Below are positions 23,146 through 48,206 of a stretch of DNA of 64,000 nucleotides, piece after piece. Numbering within the stretch: position 1 is the first letter of the stretch; the number at the start of each line of letters is the position of its first letter. Position numbers and translations under genes: made by a program. The notes below the pieces were generated by a model. That model was not told where the DNA came from. It saw nothing but the letters and a program-made list of their open reading frames with translations, and did no database searches. The DNA comes from Spirochaetia bacterium (lineage in GTDB: Bacteria > Spirochaetota > Spirochaetia > SZUA-6 > Bin103): positions 3,360,001 through 3,424,000 of the forward strand of contig OZ241863.1 in the NCBI GenBank assembly GCA_965203055.1. The letters are read 5' to 3'.

Positions 23146-23249
23146 CGACGACACGGTGGGGCGCACTTCCAAAAATGGGGGTAAGCGTCGGGCCGCTTGG
23201 CGGCCAAGCTCAAAGTCCCAGTGTAGATGACGTTTCTCGGCGATCTTGA

Positions 23250-24611
23250 TCACCGGTCTACCGGCGCCTGACGATCCTCGCCGGGGCGGTCGAATCCGGC
23301 GCCGGCGTGGCGGTAGCGGTGATGGGCGGCGCACAGCAGGCGGAGATTGTTCGGCTCGGCGGCGCCGCCGCAGGCATACGGCACCACGTGATCGATCTGC
23401 AGCAGGTGTTGGGAGCCGCAACGGCGCCCGCTGGTGCGGTCCACGTAGCGGCAGCGGCCCTGGTCGCGCCGCCACACCTCGCGCTTGACCGCCGCCGGGA
23501 TGGCGCGGCCGGTCACGCCCGGCTTCGCTGCCGAAGTCCGGGTCCGCGGCGGCGCCGCCGGCTGCGCGCACGCCGCAGCCTGCCGGTCGAGGCGCCGCGT
23601 CTTCGGCGCCGAAGTTATGTCGCCCCCCGGCTTCGCTGCCGAAGTGTCCGGGCGGTCAGCGGCTTCGTCTCCCGGCTGCGCCGCCGCCTGAGCCGATGCC
23701 TTCGCCCCCGAAGGAACGGCGCTGTCCGCGCTGGCCTCTTGCTTCGCTGCCGAAGCGGCTCCGCGAGCCGAGGCCGCCTGCGTCTTCGGCGCCGAAGTTT
23801 GCTCGGCGCCTTTGGCCGGCGCGGCGCGCCGCCCGCGCGGCGGCCGGGCCGGGTCGTGGCGGTCGAGCCCTTCCCGCACCAGCCGCCCCATGAGCTGCCC
23901 CATCGTCAGGTGCGGATCGACGTGCGACAGGAGGCCCTGGAGCCGCTCCAAGCCGCGCCGGCACTCATCGTCGATCACCGCCTTGAGCTCCCAGCGCCCG
24001 CCGCCCAGGGGCCGCACCCGCTCCGCCGGCGCCGCCAGCTCCGGGTCCACCTCGGCCAGCAACTGCGTCACCTCCCGGCTGCTCTTGCCGGACGCCTGCT
24101 CCACCAGCTCCCGCCGCGCCTCCGCGTCCAGCACCGGCGGCGCCGCCGCCGCCGGCTTCCGCTCCGCCGGCCGCGGCGGCGCCGAGCCCTCCTGCGACTG
24201 AGCGGCAGCCCCGAACCCGGTCCCGCGCGGCGCGCTACGCGCCGCGCGTTCCTTCTTGCGCTCCTGCCGGTCGAAGGCGTTCTGCAACTGCGCCGCCGCG
24301 TTCAGCGTCATCGTGCCATTCTGCAGGCGCTCCCGCACGCCCTCGACGTCCGCGCAGAGGCGCATCGCCTTGATGCGCCGCCACGCCGCGGCGTCGCTGT
24401 AGCCCAACTCACGCACCGCGTAATCGAACAGACTCGAGAACCCGCGCCGCAGGTACAGACGCCGCTTCTGAATCTCGCGCAGGTGGTCGATCACGACCAC
24501 TTCGAGATGGTGTTCGATGCCGGACAGTTCCTTGGTCCGCTCCAACAGGCGGTCGTCTGAGAGGGCGGATACGGTAGTGGTGACGGCCCCGTCTGAACCC
24601 TGTTTGTACAT
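23250..24611 (-). CDS. HNH endonuclease with a DUF222-like N-terminal helical region and a low-complexity linker
   Basis: GFSSLFDYAVRELGYS N-terminal motif; VWRRDQGRCRY...C...IDHVVP...GG...NNLRLLCAAHH. Confidence 0.88.
   Translation of the reverse strand: MYKQGSDGAVTTTVSALSDDRLLERTKELSGIEHHLEVVVIDHLREIQKRRLYLRRGFSSLFDYAVRELGYSDAAAWRRIKAMRLCADVEGVRERLQNGTMTLNAAAQLQNAFDRQERKKERAARSAPRGTGFGAAAQSQEGSAPPRPAERKPAAAAPPVLDAEARRELVEQASGKSSREVTQLLAEVDPELAAPAERVRPLGGGRWELKAVIDDECRRGLERLQGLLSHVDPHLTMGQLMGRLVREGLDRHDPARPPRGRRAAPAKGAEQTSAPKTQAASARGAASAAKQEASADSAVPSGAKASAQAAAQPGDEAADRPDTSAAKPGGDITSAPKTRRLDRQAAACAQPAAPPRTRTSAAKPGVTGRAIPAAVKREVWRRDQGRCRYVDRTSGRRCGSQHLLQIDHVVPYACGGAAEPNNLRLLCAAHHRYRHAGAGFDRPGEDRQAPVDR
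23523..23797. repeat. Six CTTCG-N4-CGAAG palindromes within the HNH linker
   Basis: Copies start at 23523, 23601, 23631, 23700, 23742 and 23784; they encode SA(A/P)K or SGAK. Confidence 0.85.
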
Positions 24612-24617
24612 GACATA

Positions 24618-24646
24618 AGTATAACCATGGAAACTACTTGAGTCAA
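24618..24646 (-). promoter_or_regulatory. Near-consensus sigma70 promoter of the HNH gene, probably giving a leaderless transcript
   Basis: TTGACT-17 nt-TATACT-6 nt-ATG; palindrome ACTTGA-G-TCAAGT (24636-24648) overlaps the -35 box. Confidence 0.75.
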
Positions 24647-24716
24647 GTTTTCAGCCCGGAAGATGCCACATGCTGGCGTGACTCGGCGGCGCATTTCGAA
24701 GCGGCTGGACGTTCCT

Positions 24717-24926
24717 TCAGATGCTACTGCCGAGATGTCGCCGGCGTCGAGCGGCAGGGTTCTTCTTACGGACCCAGGCGGCCTCGTCGATCTCCTGGTC
24801 GAGGAAGAGGTCGCAGGCGGTGGAACTGTCGCTCCAGCCGCCGACGTCGAGCGCGGCGCGGTCCATGGCGGCGTGCAGCGCGGCGCGGTACTCGTAGTAC
24901 GCCTTTCCGGCGGCTTCAAGGGCGGG
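24717..24926 (-). pseudogene. Degenerate C-terminal fragment of a type IIG/IIL-like restriction-modification methyltransferase
   Basis: Manual translation PALEAAGKAYYEYRAALHAAMDRAALDVGGWSD...FLDQEIDEAAWVRKK resembles the LHAAMDRAVLDAYGW C-terminal motif. Confidence 0.6.
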
Positions 24927-24971
24927 ACAGGTACCAGCAAATTAGATTAAGAAGTGCGCCCACACGGTGGC

Positions 24972-25000: not shown

Positions 25001-25055
25001 GCGGCCTGCGGGCAAGTGAAGGAAGCAAGCAGAAGGTACGTAATGATGGTGTACG

Positions 25056-28000
25056 GTGGATAGGGTTACCGTCATACCCTGCGGGCCGGCCGTCAACGAG
25101 AGCGAGCGCAGGGCCATCGAACGGCTCAAGGCCGGCCTCATAGGGCACAGGGGCGATGGCGTCTGGGTGCTCCTGACGAACCTTACCCTGTCCACGACCC
25201 ATCGGCTCCAATCTGACGAAATCGACATCGTGGCGATTGGCCCGCCGGGCGTCCGCGTGATCGAAGTCAAGCACTGGACGGCGTCGTGGGTACGGAAGCA
25301 CGGCGATCGCGTCGCTCAGGAAGCCGACCGCGTGACTGCCAAGGCGAAGAAGGTCGGCACCATGCTGCGCGCGAAGATGGAACAGCTTCCGCACGTGGCC
25401 GGCGTATTCCTCGTCACCGAAGTTCCGAGCAAAGTCGAGCGGCTGCCCGACGAAGTCGTTCGGGGTGTTCGCTTTCATACGTTCAAGACCTGGCGGGGTG
25501 CGGTCGGCGCCGATTCTTCGGAGGTGTTGACCCCGCAGCAGATCAGGGCGGCGGCCAGTCTGCTGGAGCCGAGGAGCGCGGTAGCCCTGCACGGCGAGTT
25601 GCGGCGGCTGGGCGGTTACGCGCGCCTGGAGTTGCAGACCGACCCGGCCGAACGATTCCATAGAATCTACCGGGGCACCCACGCTACCCGGCAGGATCGG
25701 GTGGTGTTGCATCTCTATGATCTGTCGGACTTGTCGGCTGGCGACGAGTCGAACGCGGAACACCGGGCGATGCGTGAGTTCAAGGCCCTCCACCGACTGC
25801 AACAGTACTCGTGGGCGCCGCGCATCGTCGACTCGTTTCAGGATGCGCCGGGCTATCTGGAGGAGATGAAGTTCTTCACCATGGCCGATCCGGCAGCCCC
25901 GTCTATCGCGGAACGGGCCGAAGACGACTCGTGGACCTCTCAAGCCCGTGTCAGCTTTGCCCGCGACGCCGTTCGCGCGTTGCGCGAGTTGCACGCGGCA
26001 AGCGCGGACGAAGAACCGATGTTACATCGCAATCTGACACCCCAAACGGTGCTGGTACGGTCCGACAATTCCCCGATTCTGACCGGCTTTGAATACACGA
26101 GAATTCCGACGGACGTGACCGTCGCATCCACCGGTTCGAGCGCGGCATGGGACGCATCGGCAGCGCCCGAGATCCGCTCCCAAGGCCGCGGCGCCGCGGA
26201 CCATCGATCGGACGTGTACTCCTTGTGCGCCTCGCTACGGGCGTTGTTCGCCGGAGGCGACGACGATAGCCATGCAGCCATCCGAATCCTGGACGGCGGC
26301 ACCAAGCAGGAGCCGTCCGCACGGGCCGAGCTGCCGGAACTGGACCGGGCGCTGTCGGCACTGCTGGGTGAGTCGATTCCGCCGCCGCCTCAGCCGCCCG
26401 CGCGGTTCTGGACCGAGGATCAGGTCGTGCGGTTCGCCGGAGGCGACTATCGCATCGTCGCTCGTCTCGGTTCAGGCGGCGTTGGGACCACCTTCAAGGT
26501 GGTGGAGATCGACCGCGACACGAAAGAGGACCTGGGCACCTATGTAGCCAAGGTGGTCCACGACCAGGAGACTGGCAAACGGGTCCTACGCGCGCACAGC
26601 TTGGCCCGATCGCATCTGCATCACTCGTCAGGACTGTCGAAAATCTACCAAGTCGATTCGCAGTGGCGGGATAACGGCGTCGCGGCGCTGCTGACCTGGA
26701 TCGACGGCGAGCCGCTTGATGAGTTCGCGGGACTGCTCCGCGAGCTTGCCGAGGACTCGCAGGAAGCGACCGACGAGGCGTTGGCGCTGCGCTGGTTGCA
26801 GGCGGCATGCGCGGCGCTCGGCGAGTTGCACCGCAACCGCTTGGTGCATGGCGACGTCAGTCCCCGCAACCTGATCCTGTCGGGCGCCGACGTGGTGCTG
26901 ACCGACTACGACTGCGTGACCAGGATCGATCAGCCGCTGGGGACGCCGGGCACCGTTCCGTACTGCTCGCCGTCCTGTCAGGAGGGTCTGCCGGCCGCGC
27001 CGTCCGACGACCTCTACGCGCTGGCGGCGAGCGTCTTCTTCGTCCTGTTCGCCAAGGAACCGTTTCAGTACCAGGGCGTACGGGCCAAGGACCGCGGACT
27101 GAACTGGGACGGTATACCGCGCGAGCAGTACCCGGTGCTGGCCGAATTCCTGGACCGGGCGACGGCGCCCGACCGCAGCCAACGTTACGCCACCGCCGCA
27201 GAAGCGCTCAGCGCCTTGGACTCCGCGCCCGGCGAAGGCCCGGCGGTGTCACGGGAGCCGGACGGCACGCCGCAGGAGACCGAGCCATCGCAACCGCTGG
27301 AACGGCACGAGAACGAAGTCGAGTGGCTGAAGTCGGTGCTGCAGTCCTACCCCGGTTCGCGGTGGGGCAATCGCGAGACGCGCGGGCTGGACACCGACTT
27401 CGCCGCCCACACCTACGTTGAGACATCACTGGAGCAGACGCTGTACGACGAACTTCGAGATCGGCGCGTCAGCCTCGTGGTGCTGTGCGGAAATGCCGGC
27501 GACGGCAAGACCGCGATCCTCCAACGGCTTGCCAAACGCCTGGGACTTGGCGACCACCGCTCCGCCACCCGCATCGTGAACGGTCAGACCGATGACGGCT
27601 TGACCGTGCGCATGAACCTGGACGGTTCCGCTGCGTGGGAGGGCCGCTCGGCGCATCAACTGCTGAACGAGATACTCGAACCGTTCCAGCACGGTCGCCC
27701 GGACGAGGACTGCGCTCATCTGCTGGCGATCAACGATGGCCGGCTGTTGGAGTGGATCGACGACGTGGAAGGCGATCATGATGGGCCGACGCCGTTGACG
27801 CAGGCACTCACCGACTTTCTCGAAGATCGAGATAAGTCGGATTCTCACGTGCGGTTCGTCAACCTGAACCAGCGTTCGCTCGTCGGCGGCATAGCGGCGG
27901 ACGGAAAGAGCATCGACACCCGCTTTCTCGATGACTTGGTGGACGGGCTCTACGGCGGTGAACGAGTGGCCGCCACCTGGGCTCCGTGTCGGACCTGTTC

Positions 28001-29099
28001 GGCTCAGGACCATTGCGCGGTCTTTCGCGCAGCGCGCAGCTTTGGGCCCGGCCGTCTTGCTGACGACGACGTTCGTACCCGTGCTCGGCAGCGGTTGTTC
28101 GAGGCGCTGCAGGCCGTTCACCTGCGCGGCGAAACGCATGTCACCGTACGCGAGTTGCGCGCTGCTCTGGTCTATATTCTGTTCGGCCTGCAGTACTGCA
28201 GCGACTACCACACTGCGGGGCAGGAGGCTGCGTTGCCGTACTGGGACCGTGCCTTCGACGCCGGTTCGCCCGGCCGTCAGGGTGACGTGCTGCGCGAATT
28301 GATACGCTTCGATCCTTCCCTCGATGCGCATCCGCACATCGACCGCGTGCTGCTGCACCCGCCGGAGGACGCCGGAGATAGCAGCGCGCCAAGACGCTCA
28401 GATGCTCTGCAGCCCAAGGAACGCCACGCGCAACTGGCTTCGGAGCGGCGCCGCGTATACTTCGAGTGGACTGACGAAGAGATCGTGCAGGTGGCCGGAG
28501 ACCCCGAAGCGTTGGGGCTGGCTCAAGGGCGGCACCTGCGTGAGTTCCGGGACGTGGCTATCGCCGACGACGCTGCGCTCGGCAAGCTGGCCCGGCGATT
28601 GTGCGGTGGCATTTCGCGGCTCGAAGCTCTGCCGCCGCAAGCTCTGGACGCGCGCGATGCCGTGCCGCTCCGGATCACGCCGCGCACTCCCATAGAGACG
28701 GCGTTCTGGGTGGAAAAATCGCCCGCTGCCTTCCAACTGCAACCCGACCTCCCTGCCTTCTCCGACCTGGATATCCTGCACCGTCAGGCAGCTCTGATCT
28801 ATCGCTATCGTGACGGGGGCGAGGAACGTCTGCGACTTGGCTACGATCTGTTCTCCCTGCTACTGGAGATGGAGGAAGGCTATCAGTTGGGAGACGTAGC
28901 CACCGACGACACCTTCGCTCAGCTTGCCATCTTCGTGCAGCGTCTGGTACGCGAGGACGAACGCCGCATGATGGCGTGGACCCCGATGAGGGAGGACACG
29001 ATCTACGAGCTGTCCGCCGACCTCGATGAAGCTGCCGGAGGTCCGCGGCAGCTTCTCAGAATAGACCTCCACAACAAGGACTCGGACGATGCCGAATAG
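25056..29099 (+). CDS. NERD nuclease, pseudokinase, Ser/Thr kinase and DndF-like P-loop fusion protein (MAD6-like)
   Basis: EIDIVAIG...VIEVKHW; LHRNLTPQ...TGFE (degenerate kinase); LGSGGVG...VAKV...HGDVSPRN...TDYD; LCGNAGDGKT, LAINDGRL, CRTCxxxxxC. Confidence 0.8.
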   Translation: MDRVTVIPCGPAVNESERRAIERLKAGLIGHRGDGVWVLLTNLTLSTTHRLQSDEIDIVAIGPPGVRVIEVKHWTASWVRKHGDRVAQEADRVTAKAKKVGTMLRAKMEQLPHVAGVFLVTEVPSKVERLPDEVVRGVRFHTFKTWRGAVGADSSEVLTPQQIRAAASLLEPRSAVALHGELRRLGGYARLELQTDPAERFHRIYRGTHATRQDRVVLHLYDLSDLSAGDESNAEHRAMREFKALHRLQQYSWAPRIVDSFQDAPGYLEEMKFFTMADPAAPSIAERAEDDSWTSQARVSFARDAVRALRELHAASADEEPMLHRNLTPQTVLVRSDNSPILTGFEYTRIPTDVTVASTGSSAAWDASAAPEIRSQGRGAADHRSDVYSLCASLRALFAGGDDDSHAAIRILDGGTKQEPSARAELPELDRALSALLGESIPPPPQPPARFWTEDQVVRFAGGDYRIVARLGSGGVGTTFKVVEIDRDTKEDLGTYVAKVVHDQETGKRVLRAHSLARSHLHHSSGLSKIYQVDSQWRDNGVAALLTWIDGEPLDEFAGLLRELAEDSQEATDEALALRWLQAACAALGELHRNRLVHGDVSPRNLILSGADVVLTDYDCVTRIDQPLGTPGTVPYCSPSCQEGLPAAPSDDLYALAASVFFVLFAKEPFQYQGVRAKDRGLNWDGIPREQYPVLAEFLDRATAPDRSQRYATAAEALSALDSAPGEGPAVSREPDGTPQETEPSQPLERHENEVEWLKSVLQSYPGSRWGNRETRGLDTDFAAHTYVETSLEQTLYDELRDRRVSLVVLCGNAGDGKTAILQRLAKRLGLGDHRSATRIVNGQTDDGLTVRMNLDGSAAWEGRSAHQLLNEILEPFQHGRPDEDCAHLLAINDGRLLEWIDDVEGDHDGPTPLTQALTDFLEDRDKSDSHVRFVNLNQRSLVGGIAADGKSIDTRFLDDLVDGLYGGERVAATWAPCRTCSAQDHCAVFRAARSFGPGRLADDDVRTRARQRLFEALQAVHLRGETHVTVRELRAALVYILFGLQYCSDYHTAGQEAALPYWDRAFDAGSPGRQGDVLRELIRFDPSLDAHPHIDRVLLHPPEDAGDSSAPRRSDALQPKERHAQLASERRRVYFEWTDEEIVQVAGDPEALGLAQGRHLREFRDVAIADDAALGKLARRLCGGISRLEALPPQALDARDAVPLRITPRTPIETAFWVEKSPAAFQLQPDLPAFSDLDILHRQAALIYRYRDGGEERLRLGYDLFSLLLEMEEGYQLGDVATDDTFAQLAIFVQRLVREDERRMMAWTPMREDTIYELSADLDEAAGGPRQLLRIDLHNKDSDDAE

Positions 29100-30888
29100 C
29101 GCCCGCGACATCCTCCGAAACGTACTACCAAGGAACATGGCCGACGAAATCTGGTCGGCACGATACGACAAGGTCCTGCCGATTTCCTCCAATGATTTTG
29201 ACCTGTCCGCAGTATTGCCGGCGGTGCTCTACATGTTCCGCTTCGGACAGCGGCGGGGCAGAGGAAGATTCCTTGACACGTTCGTTCGGGAAGACGGCAC
29301 ACGGCCCCAACGGAGAAGGAAGGCCACCGTCGATCGGGTCGCCAAATCGCTTACGGCGACGACGGACCTGCATGGGTTTGACGGCGCGACGGAACGGGCA
29401 GTACTTGGCGACCTGCTGCTCTGCTTCGGTCTGGAAAACCGCAAGCGCGATCTCGGCAGGGACAAGCAGATTCAACGCGTCGCACCCGCCCATTACTTGG
29501 CGAGTTGGGTCGATCTGCCAGACAGTGTGGCAAATCTCCGTTATGTGCCGGAGATGATCGTGGCGATGCTGGCCGATCAGAAAGGCGCGCACGTAGAACC
29601 GAATAGCGAGGAGGACCGCACGTGGTTTGCCGTCGCACGCGGCTTCGAGCACAACGTCCTGCTGCGCGCCTTCAGTCCGGGCATCGACCACCGCGGCGGG
29701 TTCCTTGCCGACCGCAATTCGGACCGCTTCGACGAAACCGACGAGTCGGTCGGTCTGGATCAGCTCCTGATGATTCGGCTTGCGCAGCAGTTGGGTGAGG
29801 CCCCGGACCGGCCGCGCGGCCGCGAAACGGCGAGGATCTCCAATCAGCGGCCAATTGCGGAGCGAGCTGCGGAGTATTTCTCCGAAGATATCCGCCAATT
29901 CGTCCGCGCGTACGCAACGGAGACCCCGCGCCATACCTTCATCGACATGCTGGAGGCGTGCATCTCGATCGGTATGACGGCGATCCTTACCAGCGTGGTC
30001 GAGATGCTGTTCGCTTGGTCCGACACCGGCGCCGTTCCACCTCGGCGCGACCAGCAGCCGGCGGGCATCTTCGTGGACTGTTCCAATGGCGTCGATACGC
30101 GGCTGCGGGGACTGGCCGAACGATCGATGGATGACCTGATGCGCCGCGTGGAGCGTGTCCCGGTCGTCCTGACCACGTTGCGGCTGCTCGACTACTTGGC
30201 CAGGTCCAACAAGCGGGTAGTTACGCAGGACATCCCAACGCGGCCGTACGCAACCGAGTGGCTCAAAGTGCTCGGCGACCTGTTGCATGAACGCCACGCC
30301 GAAGCTCCGTTTATCCACCGCCAGATGGACGACCATAGCGAAACACTCGCCGAGCAGTTGGAGGCCGATTACCCGGCCGCGGCTGAGGTGCTGCGTGATG
30401 ACAAGAGTGAGCCCAACCCGATCCTTCGCCTCGCCACTGCCGTGACGCCGCTCATGGGACGCCGCCATCTGATCGAGATGGTGGACTCGATGCTGCAAAT
30501 CGGGCGCCCGAACGCACTGGCGCTCAAGCGGGTCACGACCCGCGGCGCAGGTACCGCCGGCTCCGGCCGGCGCCGGCGCGACGTCCGCGCGCTGGTCCTG
30601 GGCGACTCGGCGCTGGACCATCTGGTGCATCTGCACCTGCTGCGTAGCGGCAACGCCGGGCTGGGATTGCGCGTCCTGTCGCTGACGGACTTTCTGCGCA
30701 AGATTCGCGAGCGCTACGGATTTCACGTCGATACCGCTCCCTCCGGGACGGCCATCTCCAACGAGTTGCTGCAGCAGAATCGCAGGTTCCTGGAACGGCG
30801 GCTGCGCGATCTTGGACTCCTGATAGGCGTGAACGACGCTGAAGCCATGAAGCGGCTGCAGACGCGCTTCGCGCCGAAGGAGACCTGA
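29089..30888 (+). CDS. Helical accessory subunit (MAD7/DndG-like)
   Basis: Position between kinase-ATPase and HerA-like ATPase with tight coupling; C-terminal FLERRLRDLGLLIGVNDA. Confidence 0.6.
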   Translation: MPNSARDILRNVLPRNMADEIWSARYDKVLPISSNDFDLSAVLPAVLYMFRFGQRRGRGRFLDTFVREDGTRPQRRRKATVDRVAKSLTATTDLHGFDGATERAVLGDLLLCFGLENRKRDLGRDKQIQRVAPAHYLASWVDLPDSVANLRYVPEMIVAMLADQKGAHVEPNSEEDRTWFAVARGFEHNVLLRAFSPGIDHRGGFLADRNSDRFDETDESVGLDQLLMIRLAQQLGEAPDRPRGRETARISNQRPIAERAAEYFSEDIRQFVRAYATETPRHTFIDMLEACISIGMTAILTSVVEMLFAWSDTGAVPPRRDQQPAGIFVDCSNGVDTRLRGLAERSMDDLMRRVERVPVVLTTLRLLDYLARSNKRVVTQDIPTRPYATEWLKVLGDLLHERHAEAPFIHRQMDDHSETLAEQLEADYPAAAEVLRDDKSEPNPILRLATAVTPLMGRRHLIEMVDSMLQIGRPNALALKRVTTRGAGTAGSGRRRRDVRALVLGDSALDHLVHLHLLRSGNAGLGLRVLSLTDFLRKIRERYGFHVDTAPSGTAISNELLQQNRRFLERRLRDLGLLIGVNDAEAMKRLQTRFAPKET

Positions 30889-30889
30889 C

Positions 30890-33800
30890 GTGGCAGGAAA
30901 CGCGCTGCTTGGCCCGCTTCTGGCGCAGGCATTGGCCGGAGAGCTCGGCGATCCGCAACCGGGGGCCATCGCCTACGTCCGCTGCCTGACCCCGGACGTA
31001 GTCGAGCAGCTCGCCGCGGACGCCGGCTTCGAGCCCGAAGGTTGGGCGGTGTGGCGCGTCGCCGATAGCGAGCGGGACGACTTGCGGACGTTCACCGCCG
31101 ACCGGGCGGTCGAGCTGCGCGAAGGCAAGGGCGACGCGATGGTGCTCCTGGTCGATACCGGTCGCGCCGGCGCCGGTATGGACGGCATCTACAGCGCCGG
31201 GCGAGAGGTGAACGAGGCCGGTCTGTTTCGGGCGGCATTGAGCCTGGCCGCCGCGGCGATCACCAAGCGCCAGTCGGCGGTGGTGCGCCGCTATGCGGAG
31301 GACGCGCTCAGGGCGGCGAGACGTGTCGCAGGTGGCCGAGATGCCGTTTCGCCCTGGACGGCGTTTGATTACCTGTGCCGCGTCGCCGTGGGCGAACAGC
31401 CGCCGGGTGCGTATCTGAACCTGATCGGTCTCTGGCCGATTCGCGGCGGCGGCGAGGGATTCGACCATAAGGCGGCCCTGAACGACTCCCGGCGGTTCGT
31501 GGACCGACTGCTGGGGCCGGCAGCCGCCAGCCTCGCGCCCGCCGCCCGGATCGAATCGTTGCGGATGGATCAGAAGTCACGGCAGCGGCACACGCAACTC
31601 GCGCGCTTCCTGCATGCCGCGGACGCCAAGCAACACCTGCACGATGCCCTGAACGAGCTGGCGGAGCAGGAGGAACTGTGGGTCGGCTCACTGCGCACGG
31701 AAGGGCCGGCTCAGTCCATCAAGGAGATCGTACTGACGCCGTGGCGCAACCGTAGCGGCAAGGTCCACCACTGGTCGGGACTGACGGACGATGACGACGC
31801 GGAAGGTCCACCGGTGCTGAACCTGGGAACGGACCAAGACCGGCAGCGCGCCACCCTGGAAGTCCGCTGGAAGGCCGATCCCGGCGACATAGAACGTAGC
31901 GCAGTCGACTATCGGGTGGTGATCCGGACCAGCCTGGACGAGGAACTTGCCGTTCAGGACGTTCCGCATTCCGCCAGAAAGGGCGGCGAGAAATGTCGGT
32001 TCAGCCGTGACGACTTTGCATCCCTGCCCGACGACGCAGTGCAGCCGGCCAAGGTGGTCGTGGCGGTGATCGGCGAAGATGACAACGAGCGGATCGAACC
32101 GCAGGAGAGCGAGGAGTTCGAAATCCGCTTCGGCGACCCGCCCGAGCCGGGGCATGGCGGCGTCAGCAAAGTGGAGCGAACATTCAGCGAGGGGCTGGCC
32201 GGCCTGCGCGGTCGCGACGCAGTGGCCGAGATCGCAACGAGTCCGTCGTTGGCGGCCGGCAGCGGATCCGTGGGTTACGTCACGCTGCGCACGCCGGTCG
32301 AGCAGGGGCGGCGCCGGAGCTTTCGGGTGCTGCGCCCGTCCTTGGTCGCCGAGGTTGAAGAAGACTGGGCGAACCATAATGGCCGGATCGGGCGCTGGAC
32401 GGTCAAGGTGCGGAGCTCAGGGGAGCGCGCCGAGCTCGCTCAGTTCTTGCCGATGGCCGGCTCCGGGCCGGCATGGGAACGGGCCGTCACCGCCAGCCGC
32501 AAAATCGCCGAATGGTTCGCCAAGACTTACGGCGGGGTCGCGCAGGTATACGACGAGTGCGGCAAGCCGTTTGATCTGATCAGAGGGTACCTGCGCGCAT
32601 GGTCGGCGCTGTTGGAAGGCGGCGATCCGACACATGCTCTCGCCCAGACCGTCGAGGTTCAGTCGCTTTCCGGCAGCCCGATCGGCTTGATCGTACTGCC
32701 GGCCCATCCACTGCGGGTGGCGTGGCACGCAGCTTACGACAATCTCGTGCTGCACGCCGCGTTCGAGCAAGGCGAGACGGCCAGCAACATCCGCAAGGAA
32801 CTGAAGGGCCTAGACGGCGCCATGTTCCCGGCATTCCTGCCCAATCCGCACGGCGGCGCGTTCGTGTTCGCCGACACGCTGGGCTTTCACGCGGCCGGCA
32901 TGGTGCCGGATCTCGACCGCGAGCCGAAAGCCGCCGTGGCGCTGCTGGCGCGCGCCTTCGGCGACAACACCGGGGATGCCGCGCCCACGGTGGGCGGGCA
33001 GAGCGCCGCGGTGCTGGGAAACGAAATCGTCAAGTACCTGTCGTGTCACGACACGGCGCGATTGCTGCGCGTGCACACCCTGCGCGCCGGCGACGGCATG
33101 ACGGTGGCACGGGCGCTTGGCGAGGTCCTCCGCCACTACGTCTCCTCTGACGACGAGGCAGAGGACGCGGATACGCTGCCGCCGGCGCCGGTATTCTCGC
33201 TGGAGCTGTATCCTTCAGAGGATCAGCGCGGCGTCACCGGGCGCTTCATCGCCGACGCGCGCGAGAAGCGGCGCAGCGGCGCCGGGGTGCTGGCCGAAGC
33301 GGACCGTTGGATGCTGGAATCCCTGAGTCTTCCCGGCGGCGTCAATCTGCCCCGGCTGCGCTGGGCGCGCAAGGATCAGCAGGATCCGAAGAAGGCAGCG
33401 CACCTGGCGGTCGCCTTCGATACGTTCGAATCCAGGGTGATCGCCGGCCACTCGCCTGCTGCTCCTGTGTCCCGTGCCTGGCACGCGTTCGGGCTGTTGT
33501 CGTTCTACGAACGCCAGTACGCGAGCGTGCCGGGACCCCAATGGACCAGCAGTGCTGGGCCCGCGAGCAAGGGAGAAAAGCACCCGTCCGGCAGGAGTCA
33601 CACCGACACCCTCACTCGCCTGCAGGAGGCACTGCATCGGACGGTCGCTCACCATCTGGGCGCGGAGTCGGGGGTGCCCGTGTTACGAACGGAGATATCC
33701 GATGATAAGGCGGAAAACCTCAAAGCGTTGCACCGATTGTGCGACTGGGTGGTGACGCTGGACCGGAACGCGGGCATCGAGTACTTCGATTCTCCGCGCG

Positions 33801-35866
33801 ACCATCAGGAGATCTACGATGCGTACGTGATCGACTGCGTGCCGGAGCGCGAGGATCTCGGCTGCCTGCAGATGATCACCTCCACCGCCAACTTGGCGGA
33901 GGTCCGCAGTCTGCTCGACCGCGCCCTCGACCAGATGGGATTGAGCCGCAGCCTCCGCAACGCGGAGTTCCTGATGGAGCGCTTGAAGGCTCTCAGCGGC
34001 CGGCTCGCCATCCGTCTCACCGGCCACCGTCCGGCCACCTCCGAACTGATCGCTTTGGCCGTAGCTCACGCCCACTGTACGACCGCCGCGCCGGATGACG
34101 TGTGCTGGCTGCCGCTCCGGGACGGATTCATCGTTCCGGCCGATGACGTACGCGATCTGCTGCCGCCGCTGTCGGCGGCGGAGGACGAGGATGACGCGGG
34201 TGAACCGGTGAGCCGCGTGCGTCCCGATCTGATCCATGTCTCGACCACGCCGCACAGCGGGCTGCGGTTGCGCTTCATCGAGGTGAAGTACCGCCGGCAT
34301 CTACGGACGGCGCGAGCGCCTGAGATGCTCGACGGGATACGGAGACAAACCGACGGACTCCGGTCGCGGTGGGAGGAGTGGTACGATCACGAGAACGTCT
34401 GCGCCACGTTCCGGGCGATCCGCCGCGCCAAGCTGGCGCGCGTGCTGCGCTTCTACGCCGACAAGGCGCAGCGACACGGTCTGCCGGCGGAACGACACGC
34501 GGCGCTGGTTGCCGAAATCGACCGCATGATCGAACGCGGCGGAAACTACGCCTTCGCAACTAATGCGGATGACCGGGGCTGGGTATTCTGCCCGGACTAC
34601 GGGGGCGAGCGGCCGCTGCTGATCTCCCCGAACGAGTGGGAGACGAAGATCTACCTGTTCGGTCCGGGCCGCCTGCCGGACTCGGACTTCCGCTTCGAGC
34701 CGGCTCCGGCGGAACCATCCGCGAACCAACCGATCGTACCCACCCCCGAAGCTCAGCCCGGTCCGGATACCTCAGCCTCGCTCAACACGGCGAACGCGTC
34801 GTCCGAAGATGCGGAGCAGACCACACCCTCCGTGTGTCTCGGCACCGACGCCCGTACCAACGCCGCGGTCGATTGGTCACTGGAGGTGCAGGGCAATCCC
34901 CATCTCCTGATCGCCGGACTGCCGGGGATGGGGAAGACGACCTGCCTGCTGAACCTGTGTCGGCAGCTCGTGGCGGCGCAGGTGCGGCCGATCGTCTTCT
35001 CCTACCATCAGGACATCGACGAGCGGCTCGCCGAGACCGTCGAGTCCGTACGCTTCATCGACTTCGATGGACTCGGTTTCCATCCCTTGCAGGTAGTCGA
35101 CCGCACCGCGCGGGTGCCGTATCTGGACATTGCGGCCGACCTGCGGGACATCTTCACGGCCATCTATCCCGAGCTCGGAGACCTCCAGGGAGAGCGCATT
35201 CGGACCGCCGTCAAGGATAGCTTCGTGGAAGCGGGGTGGGGACCCGACGGGGCGCCCGCAGACGCAGCCGTGCCGGAGTTCGTGCGCTTCGTCGAGATTC
35301 TGCGCGCCACCCCCAAGCCCGATCGCGGTCTGAGCACGCTGCTCGCCCGGCTCAACGAACTCGACGACTACGGATTCTTCCACGTCCGGGAGTCGCACCG
35401 CAGCCTGTGGGATCACGACCAGCCCACCGTCATCCGCATCCACACGACGCAGAACGAGAACTTGCAGCGGGCGTTCGCGTCGCTGGTGTTCTACGGCCTG
35501 TACAAGGAAATGTTCCGGCGCGGCACCCAGGAGCGCATCACCCACGCGCTGGTGTTCGACGAGGCGCACCGCGCGGCGCGGTTGCGGCTCATTCCAACGA
35601 TGGCCAAGGAGTGCCGCAAGTACGGCATCTCTCTGGTGCTTGCGTCTCAGGAGGCGCGCGACTTCAACGTCTCCGTATTCTCGGCGATCGCCAACTATCT
35701 GGTCCTGCGCCTCACCGAGACCGATGCCCGATTCCTGGTCAGGAACGTTTCCAACTCCCGGCAGGAGCGCGCGCTGATCGACCGGATCAAGCAGATGGAG
35801 CGCTTCAAGGGCCTGTTCTTTACGGAAAGCCGGAGCCAGCCGTCGACGGTCAATCTTACGTCATAG
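30890..35866 (+). CDS. Large PD-(D/E)xK nuclease plus C-terminal HerA/FtsK-like ATPase (MAD8/DndH-like)
   Basis: 1658 aa; HPLRVAW; RPDLIHV...FIEVKYR; HLLIAGLPGMGKT, LVFDEAH, KECRKYG, LASQ. Confidence 0.8.
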   Translation: MAGNALLGPLLAQALAGELGDPQPGAIAYVRCLTPDVVEQLAADAGFEPEGWAVWRVADSERDDLRTFTADRAVELREGKGDAMVLLVDTGRAGAGMDGIYSAGREVNEAGLFRAALSLAAAAITKRQSAVVRRYAEDALRAARRVAGGRDAVSPWTAFDYLCRVAVGEQPPGAYLNLIGLWPIRGGGEGFDHKAALNDSRRFVDRLLGPAAASLAPAARIESLRMDQKSRQRHTQLARFLHAADAKQHLHDALNELAEQEELWVGSLRTEGPAQSIKEIVLTPWRNRSGKVHHWSGLTDDDDAEGPPVLNLGTDQDRQRATLEVRWKADPGDIERSAVDYRVVIRTSLDEELAVQDVPHSARKGGEKCRFSRDDFASLPDDAVQPAKVVVAVIGEDDNERIEPQESEEFEIRFGDPPEPGHGGVSKVERTFSEGLAGLRGRDAVAEIATSPSLAAGSGSVGYVTLRTPVEQGRRRSFRVLRPSLVAEVEEDWANHNGRIGRWTVKVRSSGERAELAQFLPMAGSGPAWERAVTASRKIAEWFAKTYGGVAQVYDECGKPFDLIRGYLRAWSALLEGGDPTHALAQTVEVQSLSGSPIGLIVLPAHPLRVAWHAAYDNLVLHAAFEQGETASNIRKELKGLDGAMFPAFLPNPHGGAFVFADTLGFHAAGMVPDLDREPKAAVALLARAFGDNTGDAAPTVGGQSAAVLGNEIVKYLSCHDTARLLRVHTLRAGDGMTVARALGEVLRHYVSSDDEAEDADTLPPAPVFSLELYPSEDQRGVTGRFIADAREKRRSGAGVLAEADRWMLESLSLPGGVNLPRLRWARKDQQDPKKAAHLAVAFDTFESRVIAGHSPAAPVSRAWHAFGLLSFYERQYASVPGPQWTSSAGPASKGEKHPSGRSHTDTLTRLQEALHRTVAHHLGAESGVPVLRTEISDDKAENLKALHRLCDWVVTLDRNAGIEYFDSPRDHQEIYDAYVIDCVPEREDLGCLQMITSTANLAEVRSLLDRALDQMGLSRSLRNAEFLMERLKALSGRLAIRLTGHRPATSELIALAVAHAHCTTAAPDDVCWLPLRDGFIVPADDVRDLLPPLSAAEDEDDAGEPVSRVRPDLIHVSTTPHSGLRLRFIEVKYRRHLRTARAPEMLDGIRRQTDGLRSRWEEWYDHENVCATFRAIRRAKLARVLRFYADKAQRHGLPAERHAALVAEIDRMIERGGNYAFATNADDRGWVFCPDYGGERPLLISPNEWETKIYLFGPGRLPDSDFRFEPAPAEPSANQPIVPTPEAQPGPDTSASLNTANASSEDAEQTTPSVCLGTDARTNAAVDWSLEVQGNPHLLIAGLPGMGKTTCLLNLCRQLVAAQVRPIVFSYHQDIDERLAETVESVRFIDFDGLGFHPLQVVDRTARVPYLDIAADLRDIFTAIYPELGDLQGERIRTAVKDSFVEAGWGPDGAPADAAVPEFVRFVEILRATPKPDRGLSTLLARLNELDDYGFFHVRESHRSLWDHDQPTVIRIHTTQNENLQRAFASLVFYGLYKEMFRRGTQERITHALVFDEAHRAARLRLIPTMAKECRKYGISLVLASQEARDFNVSVFSAIANYLVLRLTETDARFLVRNVSNSRQERALIDRIKQMERFKGLFFTESRSQPSTVNLTS

Positions 35867-35870
35867 TCAG

Positions 35871-36128
35871 ATGTCTGGGATGCCAGCCACAAGCCAGACG
35901 TGCGTGGGAGTCGAAATACGCCGATGTGTTCCGCCTTTGGGCGCTCAGGCCGAGGACTATCGGCTGCGTGCGGCGCGCGCGGCGTTCCGGCAGTTTCATG
36001 CCCAGTGTTTCTGGTACCTGCGGGCCGACCTGGAGATCACGTTCGCGGACGTGCCCATGATTGCCGACGGGTTGCGGAAGAACGGCGGCCGCGCCGGCTT
36101 CCTGATTGCCGCTGAGCTATGCCGTTGA
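35871..36128 (+). CDS. Small protein, probable antitoxin partner of the downstream nucleotidyltransferase (start uncertain)
   Basis: QCFWYLRADLEIT...GLRKNGGR; overlaps the next gene. Confidence 0.55.
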   Translation: MSGMPATSQTCVGVEIRRCVPPLGAQAEDYRLRAARAAFRQFHAQCFWYLRADLEITFADVPMIADGLRKNGGRAGFLIAAELCR

Positions 36129-36919
36129 CCCGCCTGCACACGGCTCTGCTTACCCGAATCGCCGCCAACCGCAATCCCGAAAGCTACGTCGCGGGAGCGA
36201 CCGTGGTGCATCTCGCGCCGGACTCGCCCCGATTCTCGAACGACATCGATCTGTTTCACGACCTCGAAGACAGCGTTGCCGAGAGCGCAGAGGCGGATGC
36301 CGCGACGCTGCGCGCCGCCGGCTACGAGCTTTCCTGGTTGCTGCGGACTCCAACGTTCCACCGTGCTCTGGTAACCGCGGCCGGGGAGCAACTGAAGCTC
36401 GAGTGGGCGCATGACAGCGCGTACCGCTTCTTTCCGGTTCAGAGAGATGATCTGTGCGGCTATAGACTGCACGACGCGGACGCGGCAACGAACAAGGTCC
36501 TGGCGCTGGCGGGGCGCAACGAAGTCCGCGACTTCGTGGATGTCCTGCACCTGCATGCCACCTACCTTTCGCTCGGCGCCCTGGCGTGGGCGGCCTGTGG
36601 CAAGGATCCCGGGTACACCCCACAGTTTCTCCTCGACTATGCATGCCGGCACGTCGCCTATACCCAGGAAGATATCGACCGGCTCAGCCTGCGCGAACCG
36701 CTTGACATCAGGGAGATGAAGCAGCGCTGGCTCGCCGCGGTCGCGGACGCCCGTGATACCGTAGCCGCGCTGCCCCCCGAGGAGGTGGGAAGTCTCTATC
36801 TCGGACCGGATGGGCAGCCCCAGACGCCCGTTGCGGCATCCCCACGATTTCACCAACTGACGCGCCACACCGGGCGCGTGCGCGGCGCATGGCCGACCGT
36901 GTCGCGCTACCCTGGCTGA
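36119..36919 (+). CDS. AbiEii-like nucleotidyltransferase domain protein
   Basis: YVAGAT...RFSNDIDLF...NKVLALAGR..RDFVD. Confidence 0.75.
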   Translation: MPLTRLHTALLTRIAANRNPESYVAGATVVHLAPDSPRFSNDIDLFHDLEDSVAESAEADAATLRAAGYELSWLLRTPTFHRALVTAAGEQLKLEWAHDSAYRFFPVQRDDLCGYRLHDADAATNKVLALAGRNEVRDFVDVLHLHATYLSLGALAWAACGKDPGYTPQFLLDYACRHVAYTQEDIDRLSLREPLDIREMKQRWLAAVADARDTVAALPPEEVGSLYLGPDGQPQTPVAASPRFHQLTRHTGRVRGAWPTVSRYPG

Positions 36920-37004: not shown

Positions 37005-37793
37005 CTACACGGTCAGGTACTTGCCCGGAATGCGGGTGACATCAAACTCGGCTTCCGGGTCACGTTCGGCGATTGCGCGCGGGACTTCGCCCTCCCAGTA
37101 GTCGGGTACCGTGTCCGGGCGGCCGTGCCACAGCAGCAACAGATCGCGCGGCTCGTCGGTCTGGTTCTTGTAGGCGGCATGCAGGACGCGCGCGTCGGCG
37201 AGCACCAGGTCGCGCGGCCCCACCTCCACGTTCACCTGATCCGGGTGGTCGCTGAACATGACGGGATGGTCCTCTTCGATGAACCGGGCGCCCTGCTCGT
37301 GCGCGGTCACCAGCTGGTCGTGCAGCGGGATGCGTTTGAGGTGCGTGCCGGGGATGATCTTCAGGCACCCGTTTTCGACGTTGGTGCCCTCCAGGTAGTA
37401 GGAGACGAAGATCTTCTGCGGCCACGGCGTGCAGCTCAACGGATCGTTCCATTGCATCCAGTCCTGATGCCAGTAGAGCGCCGGACCGCGCGCCGGCTTG
37501 GTGAGGACGAGCAGGGACTCGCTGTGGACGAAGTCGCCGAATCCTAGTTCGGCGAGCGCCTGCCGCGTGGGCTGCCACTCCGCGAGCCGGCGCATGATCG
37601 GGTTGTCGGCGAACTTGATGCCAAGGTGAGTGCCCTGGTACTTGGTGTCGGGGTGATGCTGTTCGGTCGCGTTGAGGCGGGCCGTCTCCTGCCGCAGCTC
37701 AGCAACGAGCGCGTCGGTCAGCACCTCGGGGACCACACAGAATCCATCGCGGAGCATCTGCTCCCGCGTCTGCCGTGCGACTTCCGGTGTCAT
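37005..37793 (-). CDS. Phytanoyl-CoA dioxygenase (PhyH) family protein
   Basis: DGFCVV, WHQD (HxD), NGCLKIIPGTH, VLHAA..N. Confidence 0.88.
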   Translation of the reverse strand: MTPEVARQTREQMLRDGFCVVPEVLTDALVAELRQETARLNATEQHHPDTKYQGTHLGIKFADNPIMRRLAEWQPTRQALAELGFGDFVHSESLLVLTKPARGPALYWHQDWMQWNDPLSCTPWPQKIFVSYYLEGTNVENGCLKIIPGTHLKRIPLHDQLVTAHEQGARFIEEDHPVMFSDHPDQVNVEVGPRDLVLADARVLHAAYKNQTDEPRDLLLLWHGRPDTVPDYWEGEVPRAIAERDPEAEFDVTRIPGKYLTV

Positions 37794-38929
37794 GTTCCCC
37801 ACGATAGCACGAAGTCGCGCAACGCTTCCGGCGTCTTGATTCCGAGAAGGTGGAAGGACTCCGCGAACGAGGTTCGTCCGCCCAACGTGCTGATCACCAG
37901 CGCGCGGCCGAAGCGGCGCCCTACGCGCGACTGGAGGGTGGGGAAGAAGCTGCCGCCCGTTGCCGCCGCCCGCGTCAGCAGACGGTCATGCTCCGCCTGG
38001 TAGGCTGCCCGAAATGCGGCATCGCCCAATGCCCCCAGGTCGTGGATACGCCGCAGCAGGACCAGCGTGCTGACCTTGAACCGGCGCGCCAGGCGCTTCA
38101 GCGCCGCGGACAGATCTTCTTCCGGTCGAAATTGCTCGCGCAACGCCGGGAGCGGCACGAGCAGCTCGGCCGCGACCCGGTTGCACCAGCCTTCGACCGC
38201 GTGCGCCGGCATCGAGATTGGCGCCGAATCGGAGAGCGCCGACTGACCCAACCAGAGATGCGCCAGTTCGTGGGCCAGGGTGAACATCTGGGCGGCCTTC
38301 GTGTCCGCGGCGTTGATGAAGATGAGCGGAGCGACCTCGTCCGCCAGCGCGAATCCTCGAAACTCCTCCGGGTCGAGCTTGCGATGCGTATTGTTGCCGA
38401 CGACGCTGTTTACCATCACCAGGACGCCAAGCGCCTCGGCCGCGGCGATGAAGTGACGCAGCGCCTCGGTCCAGGTCGGAAGCGCTGCCTGCGCCGCCAA
38501 GTCGAGCTTGAGCGAGTCCCGAATCCGCGTCGCGGCGTGCTCGATGTCACTGGTGCGCGTCTCCGACGCGACGAACGGCAGCGGCCCCTCCCCTTCCGTA
38601 CGGGCGAACTCCCGATACCACTCCTGGCGTTGCTGGCACAGATAGATGGTGCTGAGCAGGTTGGGGCTGGGCCGGCCCATGGGGACGCTGCCGACCGTGC
38701 GCAGATCGGGAATCGGCAGCGACTCGTCGGGGGGCTCGGTCAGAAAGAAGTACCCCACCGCCGCCTGAGTTGCCTTGGCGAGATCTTCCACCTGCCTCAG
38801 CGTCGGCTGCGCGGCGCCGTTCTCCCACTCCTGGTATCTGGGGAACCGCCGCGTCAATGTCTCCATCTCCAGGCCGGCGCGTTCACGCGCCCAGCGCAGC
38901 AGCTCCGGCTTGACCGGCGCGCGAATCAT
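37790..38929 (-). CDS. XRE-family HTH fused to ImmA/IrrE metallopeptidase
   Basis: PELLRWARERAG...WENG..QPTLRQ; EFRGFAL; FTLAHELAHLW (HExxH). Confidence 0.9.
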   Translation of the reverse strand: MIRAPVKPELLRWARERAGLEMETLTRRFPRYQEWENGAAQPTLRQVEDLAKATQAAVGYFFLTEPPDESLPIPDLRTVGSVPMGRPSPNLLSTIYLCQQRQEWYREFARTEGEGPLPFVASETRTSDIEHAATRIRDSLKLDLAAQAALPTWTEALRHFIAAAEALGVLVMVNSVVGNNTHRKLDPEEFRGFALADEVAPLIFINAADTKAAQMFTLAHELAHLWLGQSALSDSAPISMPAHAVEGWCNRVAAELLVPLPALREQFRPEEDLSAALKRLARRFKVSTLVLLRRIHDLGALGDAAFRAAYQAEHDRLLTRAAATGGSFFPTLQSRVGRRFGRALVISTLGGRTSFAESFHLLGIKTPEALRDFVLSWGT

Positions 38930-41180: not shown

Positions 41181-41237
41181 CCGCCATCGGCTCCATCTTA
41201 TCAAGGCAGGCGCGGGCGCGGTACAGTACCGGTTGCG

Positions 41238-47668: not shown

Positions 47669-48206
47669 GCGCTACGAACGCTACCTCGCGCTGCCGTGGG
47701 AGCAGGACCTTGCCGGCGCCGAGCGGGTGATCTTCCTGGTCTACGACAAGAGCGACGAACGGCGCCTGCGCGCGCGCAAGACCCTCTTCGAGCTGGCCAC
47801 CAGGCGGGCCGGACACCACTGGCAGGAGTGCGATCTGACGGCGGCGTTCGCGCGCTGGATGGCCGGGATCGACTACCGCGACAGCTACTTCGAGGCGCCG
47901 GAAGATCTGGAACTCAAGCTCGAAGAGGACTTCGCGGAGTACGCGGCCGCCTGGGTCCGCGAGACATTGCGGTCGCCGCAAGCCGGCCGCGGCTCGGGCG
48001 GCTCGGTCACCGGCGTGTTCGGCATCGCCTCGCTGTTCGGGTTCGTCCGCCTGTCCGAGCTGATGAGGGCGGTCGAGCAGGACGTCGCCGGCCGCCTCGC
48101 GGTGTTCTTTCCGGGCGAATATGAAGACAGTCAGTACCGGCTGTTGAACGCTCGGGACGGCTGGAACTACCTGGCCGTGCCGATCACCGCGCACGACGAA
48201 CGATGA
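47643..48206 (+). CDS. brxB: BREX BrxB (DUF1788)
   Basis: FLVYDKSDERRLR, GRLAVFFPGEY, RDGWNYLA. Confidence 0.85.
   Translation: MGRIDKLAERYERYLALPWEQDLAGAERVIFLVYDKSDERRLRARKTLFELATRRAGHHWQECDLTAAFARWMAGIDYRDSYFEAPEDLELKLEEDFAEYAAAWVRETLRSPQAGRGSGGSVTGVFGIASLFGFVRLSELMRAVEQDVAGRLAVFFPGEYEDSQYRLLNARDGWNYLAVPITAHDER

Follow-up and report, generated by a model that had tools for sequence, protein, structure and literature searches.

A predicted standalone restriction cassette of the DndFGH superfamily, nearest to Mad6-8, in a Spirochaetia genome

Introduction

Can three restriction-type genes without a DNA-modification gene beside them defend a cell on their own, or do they depend on a mark that another system writes elsewhere in the genome? 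This question was raised by a trio of genes at positions 25056-35866 of a 64,000-nucleotide stretch of Spirochaetia bacterium DNA (GenBank assembly GCA_965203055.1, contig OZ241863.1, positions 3,360,001 to 3,424,000). We call the whole stretch the window; it is part of a 4.56-Mb single-contig genome labelled G000 (G000:C1:3360001-3424000). The genes are named A, B and C in their order on the + strand. A first-pass annotation had described them as a MAD6/7/8- or DndFGH-like triad and as a candidate effector arm of a hybrid bacteriophage exclusion (BREX) system. The former description agreed with our results, but the latter did not. We consider it probable that the trio is an autonomous three-subunit anti-phage and anti-plasmid restriction cassette, which belongs to the DndFGH superfamily and is nearest to Mad6-8 of the methylation-associated defence system (MADS). 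It appears to need no dedicated, linked modification gene and would act independently of DNA modification.

Such autonomy has also been proposed for the many DndFGH loci without dndABCDE (PMC10853773). In that paper (Rakesh, Aravind and Krishnan, NAR 2024), DndFGH was found in 1798 taxa, just 316 of which had the full set of eight dnd genes, and DndFGH was proposed to be standalone and independent of dndABCDE. Fusions of NERD and of inactive and active kinases to DndF were also described there. Thus, both the NERD-pseudokinase-kinase subtype of DndF and the standalone view have been known since 2024, and MADS is already represented in PADLOC and NCBIfam. The supplementary taxon lists of the same paper may already include the clade of our trio. 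Specific to the present case are the occurrence of the orphan trio alongside a complete canonical MADS and a similarity to relatives that is confined to the three genes.

Gene layout and family placement

The trio is translationally coupled, with an 11-nt overlap between genes A and B and 1 nt between genes B and C. The guanine-plus-cytosine (GC) content at third codon positions is 0.78-0.82 in the three genes and is similar in the remaining genuine genes of the window (window GC 68%), which indicates that A, B and C are real genes. The open reading frame (ORF) calls and the coding GC therefore agreed with the three tightly coupled genes, and with their positions and sizes, in the first-pass annotation. 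No methylase, HsdS or dnd gene was found next to the trio. A Pfam scan of 34 further ORFs of the window, 18 of which were also compared with PADLOC models, found a DNA methyltransferase domain in PglX alone (57195-60815). In addition, tblastn searches with seven methyltransferases of related loci, mad2 and mad5 did not reveal any fragment elsewhere in the window. The scans thus bore out two earlier statements, that no modification gene adjoins the trio and that PglX is the only intact DNA modifier in the window.

We searched the three proteins with hidden Markov models (HMMs) of the related systems. Protein A matched NCBIfam Mad6 (NF047741) at 185.9 bits (1.2e-54), below the cut-off of 460 and over residues 6-437 only, which comprise the NERD domain and the first kinase-like domain. 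Protein B matched Mad7 (NF047733) over nearly its full length at 148.1 bits (4.5e-43), also below the cut-off (410). Protein C had no match at E <= 0.01 to the model of the Mad8 N-terminus (NF047742, cut-off 175 bits), and the PADLOC mad8 model matched only its C-terminal ATPase (2.7e-15). The similarity of A to DptF (TIGR03238) was limited to 16 bits (E 0.004; the cut-off of 50 was not reached), and the DptG and DptH models had no match to the trio at E <= 0.01. At the same threshold, A had no match to BREX_PglW (NF033442, cut-off 990 bits). The canonical MAD6 paralogue of G000 matched this model at 242.7 bits (6.8e-72). The expected kinship was therefore seen with MADS6 and MADS7, at scores below the cut-offs, and it did not extend to MADS8, DptG, DptH or PglW.

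Protein A could be aligned over its full length with the canonical MAD6 of G000 (26% identity, E 3e-57), and B and C likewise with the canonical Mad7 and Mad8 (22% and 25% identity). The trio has the core layout of MADS, with adjacent genes for the kinase, Mad7 and the ATPase-nuclease in this order. Its operon partners in MADS, mad2 and mad5, were not found in the window, and G000 has them only in its canonical MADS, some 200 kb off at G000:C1:3580083-3585391. In the MacSyFinder model for MADS, MAD6-8 are mandatory and MAD1-5 accessory (preprint 10.1101/2023.03.30.534895). As all scores were below the NCBIfam equivalog cut-offs, the trio is, judging from its sequences, not an equivalog of either named system but belongs to the DndFGH superfamily as a sister clade of Mad6-8. 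HMMs, motifs and predicted folds all agreed with a MAD6/7/8- or DndFGH-like triad, and the class assignment is secure.

Domain composition of the three proteins

In protein A, Pfam recognized NERD (residues 14-93), Pkinase (465-674) and an AAA_16/nSTAND P-loop (786-929). PADLOC models of mad6, PD-T4-6 kinases (3.1e-31), the N-terminus of MkoA and SspF (788-1046) also matched A (see Table 1 for the remaining E-values). Of 61 homologues, at least 85% keep the D..EVK stretch of the NERD domain (EIDIV...IEVKH). In the same homologues, the first kinase-like domain had an HRN catalytic loop, in which H and R were invariant and N was at least 85% conserved, and the canonical MAD6 paralogue of G000 carries the identical HRNLTP. 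As HRN replaces HRD, the first kinase-like domain is a pseudokinase. The second kinase keeps the Gly loop, the Lys of VAK, HGD..N and DYD in these homologues, and the kinase domain of A resembles the solved PknA/PknB structures at 1e-9. The P-loop kinase of DndF has been described as having a canonical Walker A, Asn in place of Asp in Walker B, and an ND that is conserved behind strand 2 (PMC10853773). Three motifs of A were invariant in 62 sequences: the Walker A GNAGDGKT, NLDGS and AINDG (Asn at the Walker B position). It seems that A has the core features of DndF, with a putative assignment of the motifs to strands. In total, 243 of the 1347 positions of A were at least 98% conserved in the 62 sequences.

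Protein B did not match any family in the Pfam library that we searched; PF26611 is the precomputed family on all B homologues. It was similar to PADLOC mad7 (6.7e-18) and had 120 positions at least 98% conserved among 61-68 homologues. The AlphaFold2 model of B (78-row alignment) had a predicted local distance difference test score (pLDDT) of 91.6. Among 48,161 representative chains, its only strong structural neighbour was the solved DndG, 7EXX (Z 16.4, 402 residues aligned, root-mean-square deviation (rmsd) 6.7), and the next best chain had a Z of 5.1. Foldseek also matched B with 7EXX (E 1.3e-4, probability 1.00). In a complex prediction of B with residues 1-400 of C, the interface score ipSAE was 0.75 (0.73, 0.75 and 0.75 in the runs), compared with 0.00 for the best of three controls; the contact agreement was at least 73% and the partner pLDDT at least 83. 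Of 157 solved complexes, 116 reached the mark applied to such predictions, as did 2 of 215 mismatched pairs; these counts are valid only roughly here because our own alignments were used. The prediction supports the binding of B to the N-terminus of C.

The model of residues 1-1200 of protein C (63-row alignment) had a pLDDT of 81.4. Its N-terminus consisted of an alpha/beta part (1-105), a helical part (109-257) and a beta-rich part (279-521). Only weak and mixed Foldseek matches were obtained with the whole model (Brr2, a COG1565 methyltransferase, GH115 and PapD). The same was true for the N-terminal 600 residues, which weakly matched Ig-like chaperones and Brr2 Sec63 units (E ~1e-4 to 4e-3). 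The VIA-align comparison, which covered residues 598-1003 almost exclusively, revealed the Rossmann fold of class I methyltransferases, into which a beta-rich segment is inserted at about 811-896. The top match was 8uzd_A (Z 13.5, rmsd 3.1, 170 residues aligned), and the adenine DNA methyltransferase M.BseCI (7qw8_B) matched with a Z of 10.4. The catalytic motif IV, [DNS]PP[YFWH], was absent from this domain in all of the 62 sequences, which implied that the methyltransferase fold is inactive. It keeps an invariant G-D-G loop at 734-736.

Downstream of this fold, the motif RPDLI...FIEVKYRR (D1113, E1131, K1133) was kept in at least 85-90% of the sequences (61 homologues), and its PD..EVK lies opposite TDL...VEVK in the alignment with the canonical MAD8 paralogue. 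The C-terminal ATPase of C matched PADLOC DndH (2.1e-18) and HerA (1.6e-12) in addition to mad8, and its best solved sequence relative was DptH (7ES4, 2e-7). Both its Walker A (GLPGMGKT) and its Walker B (VFDEAH) were invariant in the 61 homologues. Over the whole protein, 366 of 1658 positions were at least 98% conserved in 62 sequences.

Table 1. Coordinates of the trio and its domains (window positions) and components of the canonical MADS locus L004 of the same genome
Feature	Position	Strand	Basis or remark
Gene A: DndF/Mad6-like predicted sensor-effector (NERD, pseudokinase, kinase, DndF-type P-loop kinase, C-terminal domain)	25056-29099	+	HMMs; 1347 aa, GTG start
NERD (PD-(D/E)xK-type) nuclease domain, A aa ~6-110	25071-25385	+	Pfam NERD 3.7e-9
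Pseudokinase, A aa ~200-437	25653-26366	+	inside NCBIfam MADS6 match; HRN for HRD
Predicted active Ser/Thr kinase, A aa ~460-730	26433-27245	+	Pfam Pkinase 1.7e-16
DndF/SspF-type P-loop kinase core, A aa ~786-1060	27411-28235	+	PADLOC SspF 1.2e-16
Gene B: DndG/Mad7-like helical subunit, predicted DNA-binding	29089-30888	+	NCBIfam MADS7, DndG fold; 599 aa, ATG start
Gene C: DndH/Mad8-like effector	30890-35866	+	HMMs, motifs, model; 1658 aa, GTG start
N-terminal alpha/beta and helical region, C aa 1-260, predicted docking surface for B	30890-31669	+	complex prediction
Methyltransferase-fold (Rossmann) domain, C aa 598-1003, predicted inactive	32681-33898	+	VIA-align Z 13.5
PD-(D/E)xK restriction-endonuclease-like region, C aa ~1079-1250	34124-34639	+	sequence motif only
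HerA/FtsK-type ATPase, C aa 1301-1656	34790-35857	+	PADLOC DndH/mad8/HerA
L004 mad2 methyltransferase			PADLOC 1e-96
L004 HATPase_c_4/DUF4062 protein, mad3/4 position			Pfam
L004 mad5 specificity subunit			PADLOC 6.4e-28
L004 mad6	L004:7364-11527		NCBIfam 766 bits, cut-off 460
L004 mad7			NCBIfam 611 bits, cut-off 410
L004 mad8			NCBIfam 213 bits, cut-off 175

These features can be compared with those of three known systems. Like Mad6-Mad7-Mad8 of MADS (Pseudomonas aeruginosa SMC4386), the trio has an identical three-gene order, a first protein with NERD, an HRN pseudokinase, a kinase and a P-loop, a helical second protein and a giant nuclease-ATPase. MADS is also the best HMM family for A and B. 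However, neither mad2/mad5 nor mad3/mad4 lies alongside the trio, most members of its clade are orphans, and the identity to canonical Mad6-8 is only 22-26%.

With DndFGH, DptFGH and SspFGH, the trio shares the tripartite operon, the DndF Walker A with Asn in Walker B and the DndG fold (7EXX). DndH was described as an inactive SWI2/SNF2 C-domain, a helix-turn-helix and two beta-sandwich domains at the N-terminus, followed by an inactive DNA methyltransferase, a restriction endonuclease and a C-terminal HerA/FtsK (PMC10853773), and the order of the last three is the same in C. The sequence similarity of A to DptF is negligible, and the clade of the trio is evenly and highly conserved, unlike the DndFGH of PMC10853773, where fast-evolving domains are stressed. 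PglW of type 2 BREX/Pgl, as depicted in PMC12839542, has the same N-terminal order as A (NERD, inactive kinase, active kinase, then sensory domains), whereas the C-terminal half of A is DndF-like and not BrxA/BrxB-like. Type 2 BREX has PglW, while the BREX of the window is of type 1.

From the domains and the one complex prediction, we infer how a complex could form, what could trigger it and in which order it might act. B, with its DndG fold, would dock on the N-terminus of C, and B, the DNA-binding domains of C and its inactive methyltransferase fold would together engage DNA. The sensor of infection would be A, by means of its C-terminal domain and its nucleotide-binding P-loop of the DndF type. 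Its NERD nuclease and the active Ser/Thr kinase, beside the regulatory pseudokinase, may serve as co-effectors. Once activated, the HerA/FtsK motor of C would translocate on DNA, and the PD-(D/E)xK nuclease would nick or cut it.

Conservation, neighbourhoods and mobility

More than 1,277 homologues of B were found in a collection of 5.8 billion proteins, the best 120 of which were 63-100% identical, and clustering at 50% identity gave 370 representatives. A scan of one genome per species yielded 74 related loci, which were surveyed with 5-6 kb flanks. They were from Spirochaetia (closest, 82-89%), Alpha- and Gammaproteobacteria, Binatia, Latescibacterota, Acidobacteriota, Chloroflexota, Planctomycetota and others, and the amino-acid identity of the trio across phyla was 52-89%. 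The order A-B-C was collinear in all 74 loci; C was present in 71, and the other three end at contig ends. Across 53 loci, the three proteins diverged in step from those of the window, as their identities to the latter co-varied (r = 0.93-0.97). Conservation was even along the three proteins (mean ~0.7), without a hypervariable target-recognition segment, and every catalytic motif named above was conserved across 61-68 homologues from many phyla. In three Caldilineaceae loci, B was tandemly duplicated (L033:8100-11767, L041:8146-11773 and L070:10001-13877).

The genes around the trio were not conserved with it. When 621 flanking ORFs were clustered, the largest family was present in only 6 of the 74 loci. 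We also used Pfam to scan every ORF of 170 aa or more that lay no farther than 3 kb from the trio, 265 in all from 70 loci (four short loci had none), at E 1e-7 for one batch and 1e-10 for two others. The flanks mostly contained housekeeping genes, transposases and assorted defence genes, and no BREX or dnd family was found in these 265 ORFs. A DNA methyltransferase was found within 3 kb in 9 of the 70 loci: L016, L018 (a cytosine-5, C5, enzyme), L022, L032, L035, L039 (partial), L043, L047 and L055. The nine belong to several unrelated families and are often parts of complete restriction-modification systems. Farther out, C5 methyltransferases were seen in L044 and L054, and tblastn gave fragments in L023 and L034.

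Two planctomycetal loci among the nine had a longer array on one strand (L047:1265-21688 and L055:1256-21655). It comprised HsdM, HsdS, two ORFs of 296 and 182 aa without an assigned function, and the trio, followed by a Strawberry-notch-like AAA_34/Helicase_C_4 protein of 1545-1622 aa. This is a MADS-like full layout inside an otherwise orphan clade.

The borders of similarity coincided with the trio. In blastn comparisons, window 25055-35850 aligned with L006 at 91% and window 25055-35869 aligned with L005 at 84%, with nothing aligned outside. The flanks of the window map to scattered, non-syntenic places in the genomes of the nearest relatives. The trio behaves as a self-contained three-gene unit that moves between bacteria.

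Modification genes elsewhere in the genome

A search with A revealed a complete canonical MADS in the same genome, about 200 kb downstream (G000:C1:3580083-3596641, that is L004:2083-18641; Table 1). No OLD-type mad3/mad4 pair was seen at this locus. Canonical MADS7, scoring over its cut-off, was present in 4 of the 43 other genomes that carry the trio. Among 92 genomes of the host order, orphan-type B was found in six, canonical MADS7 in four and both in two, and 1 of 10 other genomes of the host genus had orphan-type B. The DndC and DndD models found nothing in G000. The DndE model also found nothing, in a search that was silent in every control genome and is therefore uninformative.

The BREX of G000 is a complete type 1 system, on the same strand as the trio and starting 11 kb past the trio end (35866). 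In the window lie brxA (46829), brxB, brxC and pglX; pglZ and brxL follow beyond it (G000 3424890-3429736; PADLOC 1.8e-295 and 5.8e-282). The interval between the trio and brxA holds a MiaB-like radical SAM gene and mevalonate-pathway genes (41178-46793), which confirmed the earlier remark that housekeeping genes separate the two systems. Other defence genes interrupt the BREX system (window 46829-63879 and on). A PDC-S27 ATPase (51685-53106, - strand), a HATPase_c_4 protein (53242-54567), HEC-01 A/B (54575-56352) and Uma2 (56345-57007) lie between brxC and pglX, and a SIR2-HerA pair (60825-63879) lies between pglX and pglZ.

Alternative explanations

Several observations weigh against the autonomy of the trio. 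MADS depends on a cognate N6-methyladenine (m6A) mark (PMC13662399). The canonical MADS co-occurs with the trio in 5 of 44 carrier genomes, compared with about 0.3% of genomes overall (as given in PMC13662399), although this comparison is confounded by relatedness and by defence-rich genomes. In a minority of the related loci, the clade can be linked with methylation: in L047 and L055, HsdM and HsdS share the strand of the trio and lie directly upstream of it, a full type I system precedes the trio in L043, and an adjacent, divergently transcribed gene encodes HsdM in L016 and a fused HsdM-S in L035. DndFGH restricts DNA without phosphorothioate and is reported to damage the host once the modification genes are deleted. 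G000 has 20 N6_Mtase matches, which, together with the full MADS and the complete BREX, make a partner in trans possible. Lastly, the Pfam search for PglZ missed the BREX PglZ of G000 itself. We therefore added a protein search and report the union of the two (25 of 43 other carriers by Pfam PF08665, 16 by protein search, 27 together), and absences of PglZ should be taken as soft.

A partner in trans could take different forms. The resident MADS, or another methyltransferase, might use the trio as a second restriction arm, and the mark, written by mad2/mad5 or by a type I M-S pair, would then protect the chromosome from both triads. The canonical MADS of G000 passes all three NCBIfam cut-offs, both triad types occur together in the five carrier genomes mentioned above, HsdM-HsdS forms an operon-like array with the trio in L047 and L055, and the model of the MADS authors makes only MAD6-8 mandatory, with MAD2/5 accessory (preprint 10.1101/2023.03.30.534895). 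Nevertheless, we consider this arrangement unlikely: 39 of the 43 other carriers, including the closest relative (G002), are without canonical MADS7, and the trio has neither an HsdS-like partner nor a hypervariable target-recognition segment. The two triads are, moreover, only 22-26% identical, which makes shared contacts with a specificity subunit doubtful. A more specific version, in which one modification module serves two restriction arms and the trio reads the m6A mark of MADS (mad2/mad5) or PglX in trans, seems quite unlikely to us. If it were true, a mobile DndFGH-type cassette without a modifier could plug into any resident methylation system, with the inactive methyltransferase of C as the reader of the mark. 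The inactive methyltransferase and its neighbouring domains might instead read modified bases of phages, as in type IV restriction, and no self-mark would then be needed. The invariant G-D-G loop in a fold without motif IV, the absence of linked modifiers from most loci and the proposal that DndF senses phage-derived modified nucleotides (PMC10853773) are in line with such a modification-dependent mode. We regard it as rather improbable, as the studied relatives restrict unmodified DNA.

The hybrid proposed in the first-pass annotation, in which self DNA would be marked by PglX and DNA without this methylation would be restricted by the trio, has several points in its favour. A complete type 1 BREX lies on the strand of the trio, the three nearest related genomes carry the identical BREX type with PglZ 83-97% identical, and some PglZ is present in 27 of the 43 other carriers. 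However, within the 5-6 kb flanks, BrxA, BrxB or PglX was found in none of the 74 related loci, and contiguity with BREX genes, which the hybrid would predict, was not seen in this survey. The tblastn searches with BrxA, BrxB, BrxC and PglX over these loci gave only one BrxC-like fragment of 47 aa (L016), and the flank scan gave no BREX family. PglZ had no match by either query in 16 of the 43 genomes and was within 25 kb of the trio in only one (G023, ~18 kb past the trio end); in the other carriers it was more than 100 kb off or on another contig. In G002, whose trio is 89-91% and whose PglZ is 97% identical to those of G000, about 620 kb lie between the trio (~0.69 Mb) and PglZ (0.07 Mb). 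In the window, the two systems are separated by housekeeping genes and a transposase, and A lacks a PglW match at E <= 0.01, unlike the canonical MAD6 paralogue. Furthermore, G000 encodes mad2/mad5 elsewhere, about 200 kb away, which also speaks against the hybrid. In a literature search of limited reach, we found no description of a composite of BREX with DndFGH or MADS. We therefore think the hybrid very unlikely, and the proximity of the trio and BREX is best explained by clustering in a defence island. That the trio is a decaying or non-defence remnant, left after the loss of its modification genes, is highly improbable. No modifier adjoins it and an element with a proliferating HNH gene abuts its 5' end, but the three ORFs are intact, all catalytic motifs are conserved in 61-68 homologues from many phyla, and the orphan layout is the rule among the related loci.

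Other features near the trio

The element that abuts the 5' end of gene A is about 1.8 kb long (window 23155-24965, - strand). Its ORF (23250-24611) encodes a protein of 453 aa with a C-terminal HNH domain. We obtained 78 blastn match rows for this element in the genome, about 30 of which span most of it at 87-94% identity, and about 20 copies in G002. It had no match in Rfam and may be IscB-like, REP13E12-like or of another kind. Directly 3' of gene C lies an AbiEii-like ORF (window 36119-36919; N-terminal match only). Genes for AbiEii-type nucleotidyltransferases are also found about 2-3 kb from the trio in L067, L068, L076 and L059, and they had no BLAST-level homology to the ORF of the window.

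Farther downstream, a DruA domain is fused to a DDE_Tnp_1_assoc and DDE_Tnp_1 transposase (window 39307-41118, - strand), and a copy with 36% identity lies upstream of the trio in L039 (L039:1272-3056). On the other side of the trio, right after mnmG, an AAA_15/AAA_21 ATPase of the PD-T4-4_A / PDC-M47A type (window 14584-16056, PADLOC 8.2e-108) lies in a low-GC patch (0.61). PhyH dioxygenase genes are found near both triads (window 37005-37802, - strand, and L004:18672-19541) and in several related loci. We rejected a link between PhyH and the triads, as this recurrence is accounted for by the large expansion of the family (71 matches in the 4.56-Mb genome).

Seven open frames of the genome weakly matched N6_Mtase, all over the same stretch of the model (positions 20-105, E ~1e-7). 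Five of them encode about 1300-1360 aa and two are shorter (765 and 1032 aa), with positions on G000:C1 such as 2069006, 1767538, 981917, 4385594 and 2596362. Their resemblance suggests a repeated large gene or element.

Biological meaning

The reading of the trio as part of a BREX composite was attractive, but it is unsupported and is corrected here. What we found in its place is a strongly conserved 10.8-kb cassette, usually without a modification partner, whose DNA similarity to its nearest relatives stops at the borders of the genes. Such a cassette is a clean experimental target. As G000 has a complete MADS in addition to the orphan trio, cross-talk between the two could naturally be tested there. 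If the trio defends alone, this would test the 2024 proposal of standalone DndFGH and would bear on how such nucleases avoid damaging the DNA of their own host.

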